NCBI GenBank assembly: GCA_030680855.1
Contig: JAUXUN010000084.1
Span: forward strand, 54,079-118,078
Length of the DNA stretch: 64,000 nt
From: Aestuariivirga sp.
GTDB lineage: Bacteria > Pseudomonadota > Alphaproteobacteria > Rhizobiales > Aestuariivirgaceae
Reading direction: 5' to 3'
A model generated the notes under the pieces. That model was not told where the DNA came from. It worked only from the letters and a program-made list of their open reading frames with translations, and made no database searches. Each line of letters opens with the position of its first letter. Position 1 is the first letter of the stretch. Made by a program: the position numbers and the translations under genes. Shown piece by piece: positions 6,481 through 15,888 of this stretch.

Positions 6481-6487
6481 GGGGATA

Positions 6488-6516
6488 ATGTAGGGGGTGA
6501 TGGGGCGGGGGACAAT
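6488..6516 (-). promoter_or_regulatory. RpoH-like promoter of hrcA, probably leaderless
   Basis: Minus strand: ATTGTC-N16-CCTACAT, then 7 nt to the ATG; no Shine-Dalgarno visible. Confidence 0.5.
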
Positions 6517-6522
6517 GCTCAA

Positions 6523-6582
6523 CCTCGCCCCCATGAACATGGGGGAGAGGTGGCGCGGGCGAAGCCCGTGACGGAGAGGGGG
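6523..6582 (+). repeat. Left arm, cassette 1
   Basis: CCTCGCCCCCATGAACATGGGGGAGAGGTGGCGCGGGCGAAGCCCGTGACGGAGAGGGGG; reverse complement of 7110-7170 except in one loop. Confidence 0.95.
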
Positions 6583-6598
6583 TGATTGGAGCGAGGGG

Positions 6599-7048
6599 TT
6601 AGCCTCTAACGCTTTTTCCCGCGGCAAACACAAACCTCAAATCTGAAGCCGCAACATCTCCTGTTAACCGGCCATCAAGCGCTGCAAGAATCGTATCGGC
6701 CACGGCGTTCCGCTGCCGAAGCACATCTGCACTCCAGAATCTTATCACCGAATATCCTGCATTGCGCATGTAATCATCCCTCACCCGATCCCGCTTGCTG
6801 TCAACATGTTGACTGCCATCAACTTCAACAACCAAGTGTTGTTGACGGCAAAGAAAGTCTGCGAAATAGGGACCAACCGGAAATTGCCGCACGAACTTGT
6901 ATCCGCCAAGGCGCTTGGCCTTCAATTCGCTCCACATTGCGGCTTCGGCGTCATTGTCAGCTTGACGCAATGAGCGCGCCCGAGACGTTGCTCCCGGTTT
7001 TCGACGGGTGCGGGAAGGCCGCTCTAGTTTTGTCGGGGTTGGATCCAT
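6599..7048 (-). CDS. DUF559 / Vsr-like endonuclease-domain protein, copy 1
   Basis: AEAAMWSELK..RLGGYKFVRQFPVGPYFADF...LVVEVDGSQH...RD.Y....GY.VIRFW, the DUF559 pattern. Confidence 0.9.
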   Translation of the reverse strand: MDPTPTKLERPSRTRRKPGATSRARSLRQADNDAEAAMWSELKAKRLGGYKFVRQFPVGPYFADFLCRQQHLVVEVDGSQHVDSKRDRVRDDYMRNAGYSVIRFWSADVLRQRNAVADTILAALDGRLTGDVAASDLRFVFAAGKSVRG

Positions 7049-7109
7049 TCCACAAACTTAGCGAGGGAAAACAGCATTTGAATAGGCCGACTTTATGCCT
7101 TGGCCAAGT

Positions 7110-7170
7110 CCCCCTCTCCGTCACGGGCTTCGCCCGCGCCACCTCTCCCCCATTTGCATTGGGGGCGAGG
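7110..7170 (-). repeat. Right arm, cassette 1
   Basis: CCCCCTCTCCGTCACGGGCTTCGCCCGCGCCACCTCTCCCCCATTTGCATTGGGGGCGAGG. Confidence 0.95.
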
Positions 7171-7208
7171 CAAAGTTGGGTATTTCCCCTTTCAAGTAAT
7201 TGCTCGCC

Positions 7209-7823
7209 TCAAGCCGCAGGGCGCGTGACGGTCACGCGGATGGGCGTGGGGTTGTAACCGTTGCAAGGGTTATGCATTTGCGGGCAGTTGGAGAGCACGG
7301 CCAGCACATCGCGCTCGGCCCGGAGCGCCACATGGCTTCCGGGCTTGAGCGCGGCGGTTGCCACACCGGCGCTGCCGTCCGCAAGTACCGGAACGCTCAT
7401 GAACCAGTTCACATTGGGCACGATGGCCGAGGGGCCGAGACCGAAGCGCTGCAGGACCGTTTCGAAGTTCGAGTAGCAGGACTCCGTCGTGTGAACGCCG
7501 TAGCGCAGGAAGTTGTTGGGATTGCTGCAACAGCCATAGACGGTGTCGTGCCGGCCAACCGTATCTTCAATCACCGTCATGAGTGCTGCGCCGCTATCGG
7601 AATAAAGCACGCTGCCTGCGCTCACGAAGATGTTGCCCTGGACCTTCACCGTGTTGGTGGCGGAGTAGCGGTCCTGCAGATTTGCTCCGTCATAGCAGAG
7701 GAAATCAACGGCCTGCTGGCCTTCGAGGTCGATGATGGTGAGAATATCGTTCGCCGCAATGCGCGCACCCCAGGGTTTTCCAGCCGGAACAACTTCATCA
7801 AGAATGATCTTGGCCTGGCTCAT
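7209..7823 (-). CDS. DUF1989 urea/guanidine carboxylase-associated protein (CgdB-like)
   Basis: IIDLEGQQAVDF, GRHDT..GCCS, C..NF, NVNWFMSVPV, SNCPQMHNPCNGYNPTPI motifs. Confidence 0.88.
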   Translation of the reverse strand: MSQAKIILDEVVPAGKPWGARIAANDILTIIDLEGQQAVDFLCYDGANLQDRYSATNTVKVQGNIFVSAGSVLYSDSGAALMTVIEDTVGRHDTVYGCCSNPNNFLRYGVHTTESCYSNFETVLQRFGLGPSAIVPNVNWFMSVPVLADGSAGVATAALKPGSHVALRAERDVLAVLSNCPQMHNPCNGYNPTPIRVTVTRPAA

Positions 7824-7862
7824 CGCTCCTCTGGTCTCTCACAACGACGGAATGCCGGTTGG

Positions 7863-7890
7863 AAAAAGAGCGGCCCCGATGGAGCCGCTC
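7863..7890 (-). terminator. Stem-loop with U-tract downstream of dctP
   Basis: Minus strand: GAGCGGCTCCATCGGGGCCGCTC-TTTTT. Confidence 0.65.
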
Positions 7891-7913
7891 CCTGTAATTT
7901 AAACCTGCGCCCA

Positions 7914-9002
7914 TCAACGATAGGGGTAGCCGGCCTTTTCCATAACCGCAGCGTATTGCTTGAACGCCTCGACCACGCGGCCGGCACGCGGGCTGCTTCC
8001 GGCCACTTCATCCCAGAATGCCGTTGAGTCCGCAGTGACCTGGGCCCATTCGGCATCGGGGAGCGAGGTGAGCTCCATCTTCTTGCCTTCGACGCGGAGC
8101 TTGGCTTCGCCGCCCCAGTACCAGACATTGCGGTAGTAGTGGGACTGGTCGATGGTGGAGCGGAAGAGCTGCTGCAGATGCGGCGGCACCTTGTTCCAGC
8201 TTGCCGTATTGGCGAAGTAGGAGCCGCACCAGGCGCCCGTAACGCTGTTGGTGAGGGCATAGTTGCAGACATCGGCCCAGCCCACTTCATAGGCTTCGGT
8301 GAAGCCGCACCAGGCAACGCCATCGAGTTCGCCGGTCTGGATGGCGACTTCGACGTTATCCCAAGGCACGGTCACCGGCACCAGGCCGTATTTCGACAGG
8401 AACTTGCCCGCCGTCGGCACGCCGAACACGCGCTTGCCGTTCATGTCGGCGAGGCTGCGGATCGGTTCCTTGGTGAAGATGTGGAGCGGATCCCAGGCGC
8501 CGGCCGACAGCCACGTCACGTTGTCTACTTCGCCATAGGCCTCGGCCCAGATTTCGTTCAGGCCGTAATAGGCAAACAAGGCGGGCAAATCGAGGCTGAA
8601 ACGGGTGTTGAAGGGGAAATAGCCGCCGAACACCGAGATATCCACCGGCGAGGCCATGGTGGCGTCGTCCGACTGGACCGCGTCAATGGTGCCGTTCTGC
8701 ATCGCCCGGAAGAGCTCCGCGGTGGGCACGAGCTGGTCGGCATAGTAGAGCTCGATTTCCATCTCGCCGTTCGCCGCGGCGTTGAACGCGTCAATCTGCG
8801 GCTTGATCACATGGGCGCCGAGCGGCGCACCGGAATAGGTCTGGAGGCGCCACTTGATGGCGCTTTGGGCGCGCACAATGGCGGGCGCCGCCAGTGCCGA
8901 GGCTGCGATTGCCGCCCCGCCGAGGCTGAAATTGCGCAGCATCTTCCTGCGGCTTTCGAGAATTTTCCCGGACGGGCAGTTCAGGTCCTTGTCTTTTGTC
9001 AT
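7914..9002 (-). CDS. TRAP transporter substrate-binding protein (DctP/TakP-like), Tat signal
   Basis: SRRKMLR twin-arginine leader, APAIVRAQ..IKWRLQT, AMQNGTIDA, QTGELDG motifs. Confidence 0.88.
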   Translation of the reverse strand: MTKDKDLNCPSGKILESRRKMLRNFSLGGAAIAASALAAPAIVRAQSAIKWRLQTYSGAPLGAHVIKPQIDAFNAAANGEMEIELYYADQLVPTAELFRAMQNGTIDAVQSDDATMASPVDISVFGGYFPFNTRFSLDLPALFAYYGLNEIWAEAYGEVDNVTWLSAGAWDPLHIFTKEPIRSLADMNGKRVFGVPTAGKFLSKYGLVPVTVPWDNVEVAIQTGELDGVAWCGFTEAYEVGWADVCNYALTNSVTGAWCGSYFANTASWNKVPPHLQQLFRSTIDQSHYYRNVWYWGGEAKLRVEGKKMELTSLPDAEWAQVTADSTAFWDEVAGSSPRAGRVVEAFKQYAAVMEKAGYPYR

Positions 9003-9065
9003 GGTTCAGTTACTCCCTGGTTATTATAATTCTTGAATTCAGGCTTTGGTTTCCGCCAGTTGACC

Positions 9066-10388
9066 TTACTTGGCATAGAGGGTGTTTGGCAACCACAGGG
9101 CCAGGCCGGGGAAAAATGCCACCAGCATAATGACCGAAACCATCATCACAACAAAGGGCCAGATGGACCGGTATATATCCACCAGACCTATCTCCTTGGG
9201 CGCCATGGCCCGCATCAGGAAAAGGTTATAACCGAAGGGCGGCGTTATGTAGGCGATCTGGCAGGTGATGGTATAGAGGATGCCAAACCAGATGAGGTCG
9301 TAGCCAAGTATCCGCACGAGCGGAATGTAGAGAGGGGCCACGATCACCAGCATGGCGGTGTCGTCCAGAAATATACCCAGGATGATGAAGGTTGCCATCA
9401 TCATGGTGAGCACCATCCACGGCTCCAGATGCAACTGGCCGATGAACAGGTTTTCCAGGGCCCGCGCGGCTCCAAGGCCGTCAAACACCGCGCCGAAGGC
9501 AAGGGCCGCCAATATCAGCCAAAGAAACATCGACGAAATGGCAAGCGTCTTGCGTGATGTTTCTTTCAGCATGGGCCAGTTCAAACGGCCTTTGACGGCA
9601 GCGGCCACGGTGGCGGAGGTGGCGCCTACGGCTGAGCTTTCGACGAGGCTGGTGTAGCCCATGACAAACAGGCCGGTCATGAAGAAGAAGATCAGGAAGG
9701 GCACGATTCCGGCCCGCAGCAACCGCAGTTTCTCGACCATCGGCATATTGAGGTCTTCGTCCTTGACGGTGGGGGCCAGGGCGGGATTGAGCCGGCACCG
9801 CACCATGATGTAAATCACGAAAATCGTCGCCATCATCAGGCCGGGTATGACGCCCGCCAGCCAGAGCTGGCCTACGGGCTGGCGGGCGATCATGCCATAG
9901 AGGACCAGCACGACGCTGGGCGGAATCAGAATGCCGAGCGACGAACCGCCCTGCACCACGCCGGTGATCATGACCTTGTCATAGCCGCGCCTGATCATTT
10001 CCGGCAGGGCGATGGTGGCGCCAATCGCCATGCCCGCTACGGAAAGGCCGTTCATGGCCGAGATGATCACCATGAGCAGGATCGTGCCGATGGCCAGCCC
10101 GCCGCGAATGCGGCCAAACCAGACATGCAGCATGCGGTAGAGGTCTTCGGCGATCCCCGCTTCCGAAAGCACGTAGCCCATATAAATGAACAGGGGCAGG
10201 GTGAGCATCGGGAACCAGTTGAACAGCTTGAACACCTGGCTGAAGGGCATCTCGATGGCGCCGGTGCCGTAGAGCAGCAAGGCAGCGCCGGAGGCCACAA
10301 ATCCAATGGCGGCAAACACCCGCTGGCCAGTGAGCAACATCACCATCATGGCCCCAAACATGGTCAGGGCGATCAGTTCATAGCTCAT
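9066..10388 (-). CDS. TRAP transporter large permease (DctM)
   Basis: Highly hydrophobic; GILIPPS, ITPPFGYNLF motifs. Start trimmed to ATG 10388. Confidence 0.92.
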   Translation of the reverse strand: MSYELIALTMFGAMMVMLLTGQRVFAAIGFVASGAALLLYGTGAIEMPFSQVFKLFNWFPMLTLPLFIYMGYVLSEAGIAEDLYRMLHVWFGRIRGGLAIGTILLMVIISAMNGLSVAGMAIGATIALPEMIRRGYDKVMITGVVQGGSSLGILIPPSVVLVLYGMIARQPVGQLWLAGVIPGLMMATIFVIYIMVRCRLNPALAPTVKDEDLNMPMVEKLRLLRAGIVPFLIFFFMTGLFVMGYTSLVESSAVGATSATVAAAVKGRLNWPMLKETSRKTLAISSMFLWLILAALAFGAVFDGLGAARALENLFIGQLHLEPWMVLTMMMATFIILGIFLDDTAMLVIVAPLYIPLVRILGYDLIWFGILYTITCQIAYITPPFGYNLFLMRAMAPKEIGLVDIYRSIWPFVVMMVSVIMLVAFFPGLALWLPNTLYAK

Positions 10389-10897
10389 GAGAGAGAAGTT
10401 CCCCGGATGGTGGCGGTGTGCTTGATGGCGAGGGAAATGGTCTGAAGCAGCATAAGAATGAGACAGGCGACCATGAGCGCCTTGATAGGAATCATCGACG
10501 GATTCCACATGGAGAAGCGCCTTTCTCCCGTGGCGATGGCGTATTGCAGGCTCGAGATGCTCCCCGTCAGCAGGACGGCGAGATAGAAGAACAGGCATGC
10601 ACTTGTGACCAAATCCATCCACGCCTTGCCCTTCACCGACAGCCAGTCGTAGAACAGGTCCATGCGGACGTGGCTATTGTTCTTCAAGGTTACCGGCCCG
10701 CCCATGAAATAATAAGCCGCAAGGGTGAATTGCGCGAGCTCGATGCACCAGTGCAAAGGCATCCTGATCAAATTCCGGGTCACCGCGTCGAGCAGCAGAA
10801 TTCCGATCATGGCCGCGATCAGGGCCATGGCGACAATTCCCACCTTGTCGGAAATGTAATCGACTATGCGGACATAGTTCTTTGCGAGTTTCCCCAT
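10385..10897 (-). CDS. TRAP transporter small permease (DctQ)
   Basis: Four TM segments, HVRMDLFY motif. Start trimmed to ATG 10897; overlaps dctM start by 4 nt. Confidence 0.9.
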   Translation of the reverse strand: MGKLAKNYVRIVDYISDKVGIVAMALIAAMIGILLLDAVTRNLIRMPLHWCIELAQFTLAAYYFMGGPVTLKNNSHVRMDLFYDWLSVKGKAWMDLVTSACLFFYLAVLLTGSISSLQYAIATGERRFSMWNPSMIPIKALMVACLILMLLQTISLAIKHTATIRGTSLS

Positions 10898-11032
10898 TCG
10901 CTCCCCGTGATCGGCGCCAAACTGGCGCAGCCAGATGGGCGCACAACCTTTAGCTGTCACCAATTTCGCAAGAAGAACTGATACGGCCTCTTAAGTCAAG
11001 CAGTGTCGCCAGTCCTAAAGCTTGCCTGGATT

Positions 11033-11839
11033 TCAGGCGGCGAGAGCCTTGATGGCCCAGGCCCTTGCATTGAGAGCAATCGTGCCGTTGTCCTGGCGCG
11101 GCAGATCATCGCTGAGCTTCTGGCGCAGTTTTTCGCGCGCTTCGGCGGGGAGGCTGACGCAATATCCAGGTGCTGGTCCGGCGCCGAGCGTAAAGGGGCG
11201 CCAGAAGTCGTCGAAGTCCGCAAAGACGGTGGGAATTTCCAGCGCCGTGCATTCCACTGATTGCAGGCCCGCGTTCGTAACCAGCTCGGTAAGCCCGGAG
11301 GATGTACAGAAGGGAAATCGTTTGCCCTCGGCAAAGCCGGATGCGCCGGGGTCAAGTGCTATGGCGGCATCCCAGAAGGCCCGCATGAATCCCATGCCGC
11401 CGCCGGGATAATCCCAGACATAGAATGCAACGGTGCCGCCGGGCTGCGCCACGCGCTTCATTTCAAACAAGGCCTGTGGAATGTCCGGCACAAAATTCAG
11501 AACAAGGGCGGAGGCCACGATGTCCTTGCTGTGATCCTCAAGCGGCAGCTTTTGCGCATCGCCCACTTCAAACCTGGCGCGCTTGTCCTCAACATTTCTT
11601 TGCGCCGTGGCGACAAAGCCGGCGGACTGTTCGATGCCGACAAGACTTCGGGGATCGCAACGGCTGAGAACCGCCGACGAAAGCGCGCCGGTGCCGCAGC
11701 CCACGTCGAGCCAGTCGCATTTTTCTGCCGGCTTGAGCCAGTCAAGAAACCGCGTTGCCATCTTCCGGCTCCAACGCCCCATATAGGCATCGTAGCTGTC
11801 GCCAGCACTCCACGCGTCATGTTTGGCAACTTCGGACAT
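11033..11839 (-). CDS. Class I SAM-dependent methyltransferase
   Basis: YDAYMGRWS, WLDVGCGTGAL, GDAQKLP, LVLNFVPD motifs. Confidence 0.9.
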   Translation of the reverse strand: MSEVAKHDAWSAGDSYDAYMGRWSRKMATRFLDWLKPAEKCDWLDVGCGTGALSSAVLSRCDPRSLVGIEQSAGFVATAQRNVEDKRARFEVGDAQKLPLEDHSKDIVASALVLNFVPDIPQALFEMKRVAQPGGTVAFYVWDYPGGGMGFMRAFWDAAIALDPGASGFAEGKRFPFCTSSGLTELVTNAGLQSVECTALEIPTVFADFDDFWRPFTLGAGPAPGYCVSLPAEAREKLRQKLSDDLPRQDNGTIALNARAWAIKALAA

Positions 11840-11924
11840 CCGACAGCTCCTTTACAAATCCAAAGGCATTCAAAACCTGACCGGGCGGGGTTGCAAGTCA
11901 TTCAAGCGGCGGTCATGCGACCCG

Positions 11925-14504
11925 TCAGGCAATGGCCCGATGATCGGGATTTCCATGGAGCAGCAGCGCATCGCTGATCCGGCCCGCCGGGATTGCAGGG
12001 CTGAACAGAAAACCCTGGCCCTGCTGGCACCCCAGAGCGCGCAGGATATCAAGCTGTTCCTGGGTCTCGATGCCCTCGGCCAGCGTCATGAGGCCCAGGC
12101 TGTGACCGATATTGATTGCGGCCCGGACCAGTTCCTTTGACCTTGGCTTGCATCCCAGGTCCCTGATGAAGGAGCGGTCAATCTTGATCTTGTCGATTGG
12201 GAAACTATTGAGGTAGCCCAGCCCGGAATATCCGGTGCCGAAGTCATCCAGGGCGATCACCACGCCAAGCTCTTTCAGGCTCTTCAAGATATCGAGTGTC
12301 TCGGAGGACTTTTCCAGCAGGAGCGACTCGGTGATCTCGAGCTCAAGCCGATGGGCGGGAAGGCCATATTTCTTGAGGGCAGCCGAGACGACATCAACGA
12401 GTTCGCCGGACTTGAACTGGGCGGGGGATATATTTACCGCGACGGAGAGATTTTTCTGCAGGGTGGCGGCCAACTTGCAGGATTCCTCCAGCACCCAATT
12501 TCCCATGGGCACGATCATCCCGCTTGATTCCGCGATCGGGATGAAGTCGGCCGGTGAAATCATGCCCTTTTGCGGATGGTTCCAGCGCAGGAGGGACTCG
12601 AATCCAACTTCGACGCCGCGCTCAATTTCCATCAATGGCTGATAGTGAATCACAAGCTGGTCCCTGGCCAGGGCCTGGCGAAGATCCCGTTCCATCTCGC
12701 GGCGCAGCATGATCTGCAGCGACATCTGCGGTTCGTAAACCCGGCATATGCCGCGGCCATCGGTCTTTGCCTTGTAGAGCGCCAGGTCGGCATTCTTCAG
12801 CAGGGTCGAGGAATCGACCGAATCGTCCATGCTGAAACTGACCCCGGCGCTAACGCCTGTCTGCAAATGGTGATCGCTCACATGGAGTGGGCCATTGAAG
12901 GCCTTCACCAGTTCGGCTGCAACGGCTTCAGCGGCGCCAAGCTCGGTCAGCATGGGAAGCAGTACGGCGAATTCGTCACCGCCCAGCCGGGCCACAAAGC
13001 CCCGGTCGCCAACGCACTCTTCCAGCCTGGAGGCCACCGCGATAATGAGTTCATCGCCCACGTGATGCCCGAGGGTGTCATTGACGCCCTTGAAGTCGTC
13101 GATATCGACGAGAATAATCGACGTGTAATAATGCCTCTGCTTTTTTTGAGAAAGCGACCCTTCGAGCACGTCAAGGAAAAGCCTGCGGTTGGGAAGGCCG
13201 GTCAGCGCATCATGTTCCGCAAGATACTGAATGCGCGCGTCCTGCCTGCGGCGCTCGGTGACATCGATGACAGCAACAATTGCTGCGTCCCTATTTTCGA
13301 ATTCTATGGGTTTGGAATAGGTAGTCACTATAATCTCGCTGCCGTCAGCCTTGAGATGTATCCAGTCCTCTTCACCATCGTCCTCGCCAAACTTCGTTCT
13401 GGCGTCCTCCAGTATCCTCTCATGTTCTCTCTCAGGCCGAATATCCACCAGGGTCATCTTCAGGAACTGATCACGTGTATAGCCATAATGTTTCAGAGCG
13501 GCAGAGTTGACGTCAATGTACCTCTGGCTTGATTTTTCGACGACCCACATGGGAACCGGGTTGTTCTCGAACAGCAGCCTGAAGGATTCCGCCGCGTTCC
13601 TGTCGTCGGTCACATCAGTTCTGACAAAGATCTTTTTTCCGTCAGGGGTCAGGTGCTGATCGTAGCGGATCCAGCGCCCGTCGCGGAAATTCTGTTCGAC
13701 AATCGAATCCCCCCGGTCAAGGGCGGCGAGCCGCTGCTTGATCCACGCCTCCTCGGCCGCGGCATCCATCTTGGTGAACTGGCGTTCATTCTCCATGAAA
13801 GAGCGGTAGATTGATTCGATGCTGGCGCCCGGCTTGATGTAAGGGGCCGTGTTGGGGAACATTTCTTCATAGTTCCGGTTCCACAGAAGAAGCCTGTTCT
13901 GCTCGTCCAGCAGGACAATGGCTTCCGGCAGGCATTCGATGACCTGGCGGAGCTCGGCGTGGCCCGAGACCGCGTGCTGGCAGGCCTCTTCGGCGACCGC
14001 AACAGTCTCACGCAGTTCAACCTGGGCCTTTCTGAGCTCCATGCGGCCAAGGGCTATGTTTGCCAACTTCTGGAGCGAATCCTTTTGCTGTTCGGTGACC
14101 ACATGCGGCACTGTGTCGGCGACAGCCAGTGTGCCCATGGCAAAGCCGTCGGCATCCCGCAGCGTAACGCCAGCATAGAATCGGATGTTAAGCGGCCCGG
14201 TCACCATGGGGCTCCCCGCGAACCTCTTGTCGAGCGTTGCATCCGCAACGACCATGACGCCCTCTTGCTTCACGGTATGGTCGCAGAAGCTGATGGAGCG
14301 GGGAACTTCCTCCAGATCAATTCCAATGCGGGACTTGAACCAATGGCAATGCGCTTCAGTCGTGCAAAGGTAGGCTATCGGAGCGTTGAACAGGACAGCC
14401 AGCAATCTGGTGATGTCGTCAAAGGCCGCTTCCGGAGGGGTGTGCGAAATCCTGTATTGCTCGAGGCGGCGGAGCCTTTCCTGTTCTTTGGGATTGTCGC
14501 TCAT
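11925..14504 (-). CDS. GAF-PAS-PAS-GGDEF-EAL diguanylate cyclase/phosphodiesterase
   Basis: N-terminal GAF (IRFYAGVTL), PAS folds, HDALTGLPNR, intact GGDEF, EAL variant ESL, DDFGTGYS. Start trimmed to ATG 14504. Confidence 0.93.
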   Translation of the reverse strand: MSDNPKEQERLRRLEQYRISHTPPEAAFDDITRLLAVLFNAPIAYLCTTEAHCHWFKSRIGIDLEEVPRSISFCDHTVKQEGVMVVADATLDKRFAGSPMVTGPLNIRFYAGVTLRDADGFAMGTLAVADTVPHVVTEQQKDSLQKLANIALGRMELRKAQVELRETVAVAEEACQHAVSGHAELRQVIECLPEAIVLLDEQNRLLLWNRNYEEMFPNTAPYIKPGASIESIYRSFMENERQFTKMDAAAEEAWIKQRLAALDRGDSIVEQNFRDGRWIRYDQHLTPDGKKIFVRTDVTDDRNAAESFRLLFENNPVPMWVVEKSSQRYIDVNSAALKHYGYTRDQFLKMTLVDIRPEREHERILEDARTKFGEDDGEEDWIHLKADGSEIIVTTYSKPIEFENRDAAIVAVIDVTERRRQDARIQYLAEHDALTGLPNRRLFLDVLEGSLSQKKQRHYYTSIILVDIDDFKGVNDTLGHHVGDELIIAVASRLEECVGDRGFVARLGGDEFAVLLPMLTELGAAEAVAAELVKAFNGPLHVSDHHLQTGVSAGVSFSMDDSVDSSTLLKNADLALYKAKTDGRGICRVYEPQMSLQIMLRREMERDLRQALARDQLVIHYQPLMEIERGVEVGFESLLRWNHPQKGMISPADFIPIAESSGMIVPMGNWVLEESCKLAATLQKNLSVAVNISPAQFKSGELVDVVSAALKKYGLPAHRLELEITESLLLEKSSETLDILKSLKELGVVIALDDFGTGYSGLGYLNSFPIDKIKIDRSFIRDLGCKPRSKELVRAAINIGHSLGLMTLAEGIETQEQLDILRALGCQQGQGFLFSPAIPAGRISDALLLHGNPDHRAIA

Positions 14505-14576
14505 AGGTTCACTCCGTCCCTGGCAACAAGGCTTCTGCGAGCCAGTTCCCCTGGCCACGACTCTGGCGCAGAAAAT

Positions 14577-14641
14577 TTTATGACCTGTTAACGGTAACTC
14601 TCAGACAGCTGACTTCCATCTGTTGGTTAATCAAAGGTGAA
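14577..14641. promoter_or_regulatory. Two CtrA-like boxes upstream of the GGDEF-EAL gene
   Basis: TTTA-N7-TTAAC (14577-14592) and TTAA-N7-TGAA (14627-14641), each one mismatch from TTAA-N7-TTAA. Confidence 0.35.
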
Positions 14642-14660
14642 TTTTTCCGGCTTTCCCTAA

Positions 14661-14720
14661 CCTCGCCCCCATGAACATGGGGGAGAGGTGGCACGGGCGA
14701 AGCCCGTGACGGAGAGGGGG
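14661..14720 (+). repeat. Left arm, cassette 2
   Basis: 59/60 identical to 6523-6582. Confidence 0.95.
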
Positions 14721-14743
14721 TCTTTGCAGTAAGGGATTAGCCT

Positions 14744-15187
14744 CTAACTTTTTTCTCTCGATGCAAACACAAACCGCAAGTCAGAAGCTGCAATATTTTC
14801 TTTTAGCCGGCCATCAAGCGCGGCAAGTATCGTATCGGCAACGGCGTTCCGTTGCCAAAGCACATCTGCACTCCAGAATCTTATCACTGCGTATCCTGCA
14901 TTGCGCATGTATTCATCCCTCACTTGATCTCGCCTGCTGTCAACGTGTTGACTGCCATCAACTTCAACAACCAAGTGCCGGTGACGACAGAGAAAGTCAG
15001 CGAAATAAGGGCCAATCGGAAATTGCCGCACGAATTTGTATCCGCCAAGGCGCTTGGCCTTCAACGCACTCCACATTGCTGCTTCGGCGTCATTATCAGC
15101 TTGGCGCAAGGTGCGCGCCCTGGCGGTCGCTCCGGGTTTTCGGCGAGAGCGGGAAGGTCGATCCGATTTGGCTGAAGTTGAGTCCAT
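14744..15187 (-). CDS. DUF559 / Vsr-like endonuclease-domain protein, copy 2
   Basis: Same motifs as copy 1; about 82% amino-acid identity by manual alignment. Confidence 0.9.
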   Translation of the reverse strand: MDSTSAKSDRPSRSRRKPGATARARTLRQADNDAEAAMWSALKAKRLGGYKFVRQFPIGPYFADFLCRHRHLVVEVDGSQHVDSRRDQVRDEYMRNAGYAVIRFWSADVLWQRNAVADTILAALDGRLKENIAASDLRFVFASREKS

Positions 15188-15248
15188 TCCACAAACTTTG
15201 CGATGAAAAATAGTAATTGAATAGACCGGCTTTATGCTTTGGCAAAGT

Positions 15249-15309
15249 CCCCCTCTCCGTCACGGGCTTTGCCCGCGCCACCTCTCCCCCAATTGCATTG
15301 GGGGCGAGG
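15249..15309 (-). repeat. Right arm, cassette 2
   Basis: 59/61 identical to 7110-7170. Confidence 0.95.
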
Positions 15310-15384
15310 AAAAGTTGCGTGTTTCCCCTTTCAAACAATCCGCGGTAGAAGCCTCTCAAATTCATGAAAGGACCATTTGGAGAG

Positions 15385-15774
15385 ATGATTGATTTCAGAA
15401 ACGTCTGGCTGCCTCAGATCATAGGATATGCAGTGTTGATTGCTGACGACAAAGCGTTGAGAAGCGTCTGGATTTCAGGGGACCAATCCCTCACGTCGGT
15501 AATAAGCTTTGACGAACTCATTGAACAAATGTTCGACGACTTGGATTCTGAAGCCATATGGAGTTAACACAAGGGAGAATTGGTAGATCGCGTCAGCCTG
15601 CAGTCATCTATTGATGCCTTTCTCCGTGCGCTCTTAGAAGCCGATGAGCCATTTGGGAGAAAGAATTGTACAGATCATGCCGCACTACTTTCTTCTCCTA
15701 TTTGGTTGCAAGTCCGCGAAACTGCTGAGCTTGTCGTCAAGTGTGCGGATGAGGCAAAGTTGACTTATTTCTAG
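15385..15774 (+). pseudogene. AT-rich hypothetical gene interrupted by an in-frame TAA
   Basis: ORFs 15364-15567 and 15580-15774 are in the same frame, separated by one TAA (15565-15567). ATG 15385 follows GGAGAG. Confidence 0.55.
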
Positions 15775-15888
15775 GACTATTTCTGACTCAAAGCCGACAT
15801 TCAAAGCCATTCACCCCCTCTATTTATTGCCATTTCCATTTGCCGCCATGGCGCGCTAGAAGACCCGAAATCACAAAAGGAATGACCC

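Follow-up and report, generated by a model that had tools for sequence, protein, structure and literature searches.

The bacterial BoxC repeat is said to have been treated by Bergler in 1992 and by Hoyne and Maher in 2000 and 2002. Named BoxC first, then PIT and then TM_ECO (Holder et al. 2015, PMC4666352), it has the published pattern CCCTCNCCC-N3-6-GGGNGAGGG-N3-GGGNGAGGG, and the E. coli motif folds in vitro into an intrastrand purine-motif triplex. There are 3610 copies in 262 proteobacterial genomes and 23 in E. coli K-12; the TM loci are unusually variable and prone to rearrangement in E. coli, and inverted pairs always combine two subtypes, type A with type B. No function was assigned by these authors, who state that no associated mobility function or common flanking gene was ever found (PMC4666352). 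Here we analyse a 64,000-nucleotide stretch of the Aestuariivirga sp. contig JAUXUN010000084.1 (positions 54,079 to 118,078; hereafter the window), in which two genes for nucleases of the DUF559 family are each enclosed by inverted arms. The arms, which a preliminary description of the window had likened to those of a REP/RAYT unit, are a variant of the known BoxC/PIT/TM_ECO intrastrand-triplex repeat and not a new type of hairpin. Repeat and DUF559 are each already known; the link between them is apparently new, and we found no paper connecting the two among open-access papers and preprints, an older or closed-access mention being possible. The pairing of nuclease and repeat is real and ancient, and it is probably functional, with a mechanism that we infer.

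The window contains two diverged copies of a unit of about 675 bp, unit A (6521-7196) and unit B (14659-15335), about 8 kb apart and in the same orientation. Each consists of a DUF559 gene, encoding a Vsr-like PD-(D/E)xK protein, between inverted arms of 60/61 nt. An arm is composed of a C-rich/G-rich hairpin (hp1, CCTCGCCCCC-loop-GGGGGAGAGG), a C(GAA)G mini-hairpin at the position of loop 2 of the published motif (hp2, GGC(G/A)CGGGC-(G/A)AA-GCCCGTGAC) and a G-rich box (G-box, GGAGAGGGGG) mirroring the purine strand of hp1. The features of the two units are as follows.

6523-6582, plus strand: unit A, whole downstream arm, made up of hp1, hp2 and G-box.
6523..6550, plus strand: unit A, hp1, the gene-distal hairpin of the downstream arm, CCTCGCCCCC-ATGAACAT-GGGGGAGAGG, with one G.A stem mismatch.
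6551..6572, plus strand: unit A, hp2, the second hairpin, TGGCGCGGGC-GAA-GCCCGTGAC, with a C(GAA)G triloop; it replaces loop 2 of the triplex motif.
6573..6582, plus strand: unit A, G-box, GGAGAGGGGG, gene-proximal, mirroring the hp1 purine strand; candidate third strand of an intrastrand purine-motif triplex (motif definition from PMC4666352).
6599..7048, minus strand: unit A, DUF559 gene, 149 amino acids (aa), Pfam E 4e-33, catalytic D64, E75-V-D77-G and H81 conserved.
7110..7170, minus strand: unit A, upstream arm; read on the minus strand, hp1 with loop AATGCAAAT, hp2 and G-box.
7171..7196, minus strand: unit A, 26-nt extension, TTGAAAGGGGAAAYACSCAACTTTK on the coding strand, common only to the two window copies.
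14661..14720, plus strand: unit B, downstream arm, 59/60 identical to the unit A arm.
14744..15187, minus strand: unit B, DUF559 gene, 147 aa, 85% identical to copy A.
15249..15335, minus strand: unit B, upstream arm (15249-15309, 59/61 identical to that of A) and 26-nt extension.

For unit A, a repeat finder returns arms of 55 nt at 95% complementarity that bracket the open reading frame (ORF) at 6599..7048 on the minus strand. Four copies of the 42-nt arm core are present in the window, 100 shuffles giving an expectation of none, and there is no further arm copy beyond these four. Alignment of the two units shows 59/60 matching positions in the left arms and 59/61 in the right ones, with 84% identity in the coding DNA; protein identity is 85% over 143 aa by BLASTP or 82% by global alignment. 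These values reproduce the arm identities and the roughly 82% protein identity of the preliminary description, whose account of two hairpins per arm with side-specific hp1 loops (left ATGAACAT, right A(T/A)TTGCATT) proved correct in every detail checked. It had missed that the homology between A and B, sharply bounded on the left between AA and CCTCGCCCCC, continues on the right for 26 nt past the arm, up to 7196 and 15335. This extension has no sigma-70-like promoter match and is not present in L001 and L006, two related loci described below.

The same arrangement recurs across the DUF559 family. Searching metagenome contigs with a profile built from 14 diverse proteins gave us 80 DUF559 loci that share 38-64% identity with the query. 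Of these, 67 were testable, and a bracket was counted where the flanking inverted repeat scored at least 45; 81 positions shifted by 1 kb in the same loci served as controls. A bracket was found at 47/67 DUF559 loci and at 0/81 controls, for which the maximum score was 34. Every arm at the bracketed metagenomic loci is of the BoxC/TM type, and its G-box is always gene-proximal. Twelve loci from annotated replicons were also examined. The S. meliloti DUF559 gene is bracketed by 114-nt arms, each itself a complete doublet (an inverted pair of arms, see below), and brackets are also present in Sinorhizobium K101, Deinococcus proteolyticus, Azospirillum lipoferum, Sphingomonas and Novosphingobium THN1, the last with the two-hairpin design of the window; arms on one side only were seen at E. 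coli ycjD and in Shinella, A. brasilense and Methylobacterium. Gene and arms, which the preliminary description had treated as one package, are a real recurrent unit. Since most DUF559 genes across bacteria carry the bracket, DUF559 is a testable candidate partner of the repeats. Arm type also co-varies with DUF559 phylogeny, as had been suggested for checking: the arms within one unit are 87% alike, against 64% between units, and arm similarity increases with protein similarity (Mantel r 0.27, reached by 0/2000 permutations).

The arms are conserved far beyond the gene. In the Aestuariivirga metagenome-assembled genome (MAG) with locus L001, the DUF559 protein is 72% identical to that of the window, while the arm cores show 0 and 1 change over 42 positions. 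Locus L006, from a second species, is orthologous to L001, with flanks 85% identical in nucleotide sequence and the gene order rpoN-hpf-ptsN, unit, DUF1150-HSP20. Synonymous divergence (dS) between them is 0.58-0.99 for the neighbouring genes and 1.0 for DUF559, and because the two agree in this way the unit at the ptsN site can be taken as vertically inherited. Over that distance neutral DNA would be scrambled, yet the upstream arm shows one change in 60 nt and the downstream core one change. Arm cores thus have 0-1 change where synonymous dS amounts to 0.58 (A/B), about 1.0 (L001/L006) and 2.1 (A/L001), and the earlier statement that the arms are more strongly conserved than the gene holds, with 0-1 change in cores at loci whose dS is about 0.6-1.0. 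The ratio of non-synonymous to synonymous divergence (dN/dS) is 0.14 for copies A and B (dS 0.58), 0.12 for a pair of Aestuariivirga orthologues and 0.09 when the window is compared with Aestuariivirga. By these substitution ratios, the DUF559 genes are under purifying selection, and their catalytic core is intact.

The window protein matches DUF559 (PF04480) with 113.9 bits against a cut-off of 20.6 (E 4e-33), and the NCBIfam YcjD model with E 1e-19, below the equivalog cut-off. Residues D64, E75, D77 and H81 are invariant in an alignment of 14 diverse sequences, with relatives down to 38% identity. By sequence, the closest solved protein is the N. gonorrhoeae DUF559 protein (PDB 3HRL, E 3e-23), which is also the best Foldseek match of the AlphaFold model (predicted local distance difference test, pLDDT, 84; E 6e-7, template-modelling score 0.81 over the target). 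Second comes the catalytic domain of the homing endonuclease I-Bth0305I (3R3P, E 1e-3), followed by Vsr (E 0.04-0.3); identity to the I-Bth0305I and Vsr structures is 16-18%. The bracketed gene, DUF559/MTES_1575, gives no match to Y1_Tnp, the HUH transposase family. Membership of a defence system was considered and rejected, as PADLOC and NCBIfam gave weak matches only, namely to the DUF559 domains that large defence helicases contain. Lengths of 160-228 aa are given for many DUF559 proteins in databases, with spurious amino-termini rich in P, L, G and A, such as '...PLPQPLPPAGGE...' (L021 1857-2393); these models are overlong because the called ORF runs through the upstream arm.

The strict published regular expression of the repeat has no match in the window, because loop 2 is a 22-nt insert with the second hairpin. 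The defining triplet rule is followed by the window arms, the third block being an antiparallel (mirror) counterpart of the hairpin's purine strand: GGAGAGGGGG mirrors GGGGGAGAGG exactly, a relation missed in the preliminary description, and in all four window arms 10/10 triplets are compatible in the mirror register against 8/10 in the direct register. Among 113 arms from many loci the G-box tracks the hp1 purine strand in the mirror sense, with examples such as GGGGGAGGG/GGGTGGGGG, GGGGGAAGG/GGATGGGGG and GGGGAGAAGG/GGATGAGGGG; where arms are asymmetric, the mirror is better in 52 and the direct register in 7, with 42 ties. Purine-motif triplexes form in DNA and not in RNA, according to work cited in PMC4666352, so the constraint on the arms most likely acts on DNA.

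Two-hairpin folding gives z scores of -4.2 and -5.2 for the left arms and of -2.4 and -3.5 for the right arms with flank. There are 39 distinct hp2 sequences, of which 31 fold clearly better than shuffles and 27 have a C:G-closed GNA triloop; the C(GNA)G loop is a hallmark of exceptionally stable DNA mini-hairpins. The hp2 versions of the L031, L039, L046 and L027 arms have GAGC-GAA-GCGAG in common, with tandem G.A/A.G oppositions in the stem. A mismatch in hp1 recurs at one fixed position, CCTC[G]CCC opposite A (19/32 mismatched arms), and corresponds to the 'mm' type, the commonest in E. coli. It is found from E. coli to Hyphomicrobiales arms, in the window for example at 6527/6546 and 7146/7165, and is worth noting beside a gene with the fold of a mismatch-nicking enzyme. 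The hp1 G/A asymmetry flips between the two arms, which are therefore true inverted repeats; a long direct duplication of a palindromic target was rejected. No Rfam family was found on either strand at E <= 1.

Arms also occur without the gene. When 185,579 species genomes were scanned for the arm core, 13 loci were returned, every one from a Hyphomicrobiales MAG; the gene is present at two of them, and 9/13 genome matches have gene-less arm copies. Four gene-less loci are 146-bp doublets with sharp ends, about 93-95% identical to each other. In a doublet, a short central hairpin (CTGGCCG-GAGAYTCAA-CGGCCAG) separates a window-like arm from an inverted arm that belongs to a second subtype, with hp2 GTCTGC-TTC-GCAGAC. 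Their positions are as follows.

L013, 7554-7697: gene-less doublet.
L012, 4487-4636: gene-less doublet.
L009, 7116-7267: gene-less doublet.
L002, 6600-6742: gene-less doublet.

Apart from the orthologous pair L002/L009, the doublets lie in different genomic contexts, and two are within one MAG. They pair two arm subtypes, echoing the E. coli rule of type A always with type B, whereas gene-bearing units have the same subtype twice. In S. meliloti, the chromosome record has 19 places with the arm but a single DUF559 gene, and a 45-nt sub-module of the arm is also on pSymB, which is without a DUF559 gene; a blastn search of the PLSDB plasmids with the whole unit gave nothing. Contigs of the groundwater metagenome from which the window derives run from the arm into the doublet centre. 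Summed contig depth in this sample is 40-180 at the arms against 11-13 at the flanks, a 3-15-fold excess, soil and sediment runs being alike, so the arm copy number in the source genome is hinted at by depth only. A soil run labelled RNA-Seq (X16) has raised arm depth at window positions 6522-6595 and 7114-7187, with one contig entering the doublet centre; arms may be transcribed in some organisms, DNA carry-over being the alternative. Contig joints of RNA-seq data that skip the gene were considered as excision or splicing and rejected, their short side being 29-30 nt; they probably reflect arms that are arranged differently in other organisms.

In E. coli, the ycjD frame ends inside hp1 of a BoxC copy, and a second BoxC lies 170 nt further (L025 2001-2565); Table S2 of Holder et al. 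lists TM no. 9 between fabI and ycjD, without comment (PMC4666352). The gene is present in 3378/5426 complete E. coli genomes (62%), with one ycjD against 23 TM copies in K-12. Strains without ycjD have the eefRABCD efflux operon at the same sapF-fabI site (L114, L115), and at least two independent replacements have been inferred at the locus of ycjD and BoxC (PMC12817139). A megablast search of 5,426 E. coli genomes with one 36-nt TM variant gave a median of 3, near-exact copies only. For the counted strains we use the phylogroups given below, with O157:H7 in E. Published per-strain TM counts, combined with the published ycjD distribution (PMC12817139), then give the following.

Phylogroups A, B1 and C: ycjD present, 19-30 TM copies.
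Phylogroup E (O157:H7): ycjD absent, 11 TM copies.
Phylogroup D: ycjD absent, 12-15 TM copies.
Phylogroup F: ycjD absent, 6 TM copies.
Phylogroup B2: ycjD absent, 1-2 TM copies.

The highest counts go together with the presence of ycjD. The data fit a role of ycjD in making or amplifying copies and speak against its being required for keeping them, a comparison that is confounded by phylogeny.

The genomic sites of the units provide indirect evidence on movement. The window units lie in a 9.3-kb insertion (6482-15851) in the hrcA-rph spacer, which by synteny measures 77-112 nt in L107, L108, L110 and L112, relatives with 85-94% identical HrcA. Unit A follows the first 40 nt of the insertion; a cargo of 7.4 kb separates it from unit B, beyond which lie about 516 nt. 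Unit A is at the hrcA end of the island and unit B about 516 nt inside the rph end, a placement not recognised in the preliminary description. By Pfam, the cargo contains DUF1989, TRAP DctPQM, a class-I S-adenosylmethionine methyltransferase and a PAS-GGDEF-EAL gene. Between unit B and rph, at 15364-15774 (plus strand), there are adjacent short ORFs of 67 and 64 aa, which may be one frameshifted gene. The notion of the island as a composite transposon is retained as a remark only, with the right boundary about 516 nt beyond unit B and no repeat at the island ends. In L107 (HrcA 94% identical) a different insert of 669 nt is found in the spacer (9305-9973), with a 125-aa hydrophobic ORF without Pfam match, and the spacer is thus a recurrent insertion site.

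The nearest relatives of L001, with 90% identical flanks, are without the unit at the ptsN site, where a 73-nt spacer of unrelated sequence takes its place. The flanks give the tree ((L001, empty clade), L006), which makes one loss or replacement the simplest history. Among close Aestuariivirga relatives (L116-L126) the ptsN-DUF1150 spacer varies, with a DUF559 unit, a 73-nt AT-rich terminator-like spacer, a CTTCCTGTCCCC...GGGAAGGGAG hairpin, an HxlR and acyl-CoA dehydrogenase insert or a different neighbouring gene. L014 was compared with window 56-57 kb as a possible empty site, where homology is limited to the downstream gene and uninformative. That the hrcA-rph, ptsN and E. coli sapF-fabI sites are all hot spots is in line with the instability result of Holder et al.; no clean insertion junction or duplicated target is seen at any of the three.

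The simplest reading of a bracket that extends from Deinococcus to Proteobacteria would be that nuclease and folded repeat interact, because the orientation is fixed, the arms are near-invariant, the catalytic core is under selection and free arm copies exist. More specifically, we propose that DUF559 nuclease and BoxC-type repeat form a functional pair in which the protein acts on the folded arm, with putative binding or cleavage, a proposal for which we see the chances as evenly balanced. One strand of each arm would fold into the GC hairpin and the stable C(GNA)G mini-hairpin, with the G-rich third strand laid back on hp1. The protein would recognise this folded arm on transiently single-stranded or extruded DNA and nick or cut there, after which host repair would copy by recombination or gene conversion between arm copies. 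Such a process could keep the arms almost invariant, leave the gene surrounded by its own sites, give rise to gene-less doublets at other places and homogenise them, and turn arm-bearing spacers into rearrangement hot spots. We favour nicking or cutting with subsequent host recombination or gene conversion because a PD-(D/E)xK enzyme only hydrolyses DNA; the mechanism would be closer to homing and concerted evolution than to transposition. A wider proposal, that DUF559 proteins are structure-specific nucleases for the folded BoxC/PIT repeat and form a second, independent repeat-nuclease symbiosis beside that of REPIN and RAYT (REP-associated tyrosine transposase; REP, repetitive extragenic palindrome), and that this explains the origin and conservation of the repeat and its destabilisation of genomes, we put forward tentatively, as somewhat less probable than its negation.

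Several observations weigh against an interaction of nuclease and repeat, or against the spread that it is proposed to drive. In vivo footprinting in E. coli showed no stable triplex (PMC4666352). A two-sided bracket was not found at about 30% of the DUF559 loci, and the Mantel correlation, also predicted by plain linkage or shared host ancestry, is consistent with co-evolution without being proof of it. In E. coli, 1-15 TM copies persist in lineages without ycjD, and the gradient in their count follows the species tree. The unit at ptsN, the single clear case of presence and absence, looks vertically inherited and lost once, unlike an active mobile element. By eye and by alignment, no consistent target-site duplication was seen at the at least 12 element ends inspected, with A/T-rich flanks (TTAA, TA), nor was a clean insertion junction found, the hrcA-rph and ptsN-DUF1150 sites differing by replacement. 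A hydrolytic PD-(D/E)xK enzyme, finally, cannot join DNA, so that any putative spread needs host functions. The selfish element spreading its repeats, as portrayed in the preliminary description, is borne out as regards the dispersed gene-less arm copies, whereas no insertion junction, target duplication or recent transposition was found.

Among the alternatives, the strongest is a serious one, though unlikely in our view: a homing-type selfish gene, with the repeat spreading by other means. DUF559, as a free-standing homing endonuclease, would then cut the centre of gene-less doublets and repair of the break would copy the gene in, the arms serving as homology, which would make the repeat a landing pad and not a product. 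The gene-less doublets do share the arm orientation of the units, with the G-boxes inside, and the sequence inside the arms (ACTTGGCC... / ...GGCAAGA) resembles the halves of the central stem of the doublet, ACTGGCCG-GAGATTCAA-CGGCCAGCA, so that the gene occupies the place of the central loop. A homing endonuclease is also the second-best structural match, several diverged paralogues can be present in one genome, as in the window, and BoxC persists without ycjD. Among the loci fetched, however, no site occupied by a doublet had a gene-bearing orthologue, the ptsN relatives without the unit carrying an unrelated spacer, and S. meliloti has a complete doublet on either side of its gene. Purifying selection over a dS of at least 1 at one fixed locus would be unusual for a homing gene after fixation, and the idea alone leaves the near-invariant arms unexplained.

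Somewhat more doubtful is a purely cis-acting, housekeeping role, with no part in mobility, in which the arms serve the expression or insulation of a repair nuclease that may be toxic, for example as terminators, as an autoregulatory operator or by stabilising the transcript. Their location in the 5' and 3' untranslated flanks would suit it, as would the vertical inheritance of a unit under purifying selection and the position of both window units directly upstream of, and co-oriented with, the next gene. As reported in PMC4666352, Hoyne and Maher (2002) saw no promoter or terminator activity of PIT/BoxC elements in E. coli. The arms have no promoter or terminator consensus, a scan for both giving no promoter and one terminator-like site, no better than shuffles, and most arm copies are far from any DUF559 gene. 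The mirror co-variation, moreover, points to a DNA triplex, which RNA cannot form.

Ordinary Vsr-type repair, in which DUF559 nicks the T:G mismatches of a solitary cytosine methyltransferase and the repeats accumulate in the same variable spacers, has in its favour a fold similar to Vsr, the generally unstable spacers of TM loci (PMC4666352) and Caulobacter VsrA (CCNA_02930), a DUF559-domain protein for which such a role has been proposed and which has a functional link to the methyltransferase ScmA (PMC12907096), and is nevertheless improbable: coincidence cannot yield 47/67 against 0/81 with fixed orientation and immediate adjacency from Deinococcus to Proteobacteria, the window protein has no match to the Vsr family PF03852 at E <= 0.01, and among the neighbour genes of either unit there is no DNA methyltransferase and so none of the cytosine type, the methyltransferase nearest to the units (11033-11839) being of the class-I small-molecule type.

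The proposed partnership of nuclease and folded repeat matters for both partners. BoxC/PIT/TM repeats have been studied biophysically without an assigned function, an associated gene or a means of spread, and DUF559 is a large nuclease family whose role is largely unsettled; the family-wide physical link gives both a concrete and cheap test, E. coli ycjD against the 23 BoxC copies. If the link is functional, it would constitute a second class of repeat-enzyme partnership, with a fold and chemistry unlike those of RAYTs, and would give intrastrand DNA triplexes a biological client, offer an explanation of the rearrangement hot spots at these repeats and correct the many DUF559 gene models wrongly extended through the arms.

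Compared with known systems, the units resemble miniature inverted-repeat transposable elements and their autonomous parents in their terminal inverted arms and in the existence of sharp-ended, gene-less derivatives of 146 bp at several loci beside a longer gene-bearing form. They differ from them in that no DDE or serine/tyrosine transposase and no target-site duplication was found, and in that the gene-less form pairs two arm subtypes. With the Vsr-like homing endonuclease I-Bth0305I (3R3P) and with Vsr (1VSR/1CW0), small nicking or cutting enzymes dependent on site or structure, they share the catalytic fold; unlike these, the window gene is outside any intron or intein, is not beside a dcm-type methyltransferase and belongs to Pfam DUF559.

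The comparison with REP and RAYT made in the preliminary description is apt as logic, because the unit is bracketed and recurrent and gene-less copies are dispersed: as in REP/REPIN-RAYT systems, one nuclease gene lies between inverted structured repeats, its presumed substrate, the repeats outnumber the gene and form inverted doublets, and the gene is low-copy and vertically inherited, with a repeat type that tracks its phylogeny. The comparison fails for the cut-and-join chemistry of HUH enzymes, since a PD-(D/E)xK hydrolase takes the place of the HUH Y1 tyrosine enzyme with its covalent intermediate. The arms also start with CCTCGCCCC and have the GTAG/CGTC head at neither end; they are of triplex type and not simple REP hairpins, have lower copy numbers and are known here from sequence.

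The closest likeness is to BoxC/PIT/TM_ECO itself, with the same three blocks (C-rich, loop, G-rich, loop, second G-rich), a frequent single mismatch at the N, an intergenic, dispersed and highly conserved occurrence tied to variable loci, and the frequent pairing of two subtypes in inverted orientation. At other DUF559 loci many of the arms fit the published pattern outright, whereas in the window arms the blocks measure 10 nt, loop 1 (8-9 nt) extends the stem and loop 2 is the 22-nt insert. Neither an associated gene nor a mobility function was found in the published work; in the present case a nuclease gene lies between the repeats.

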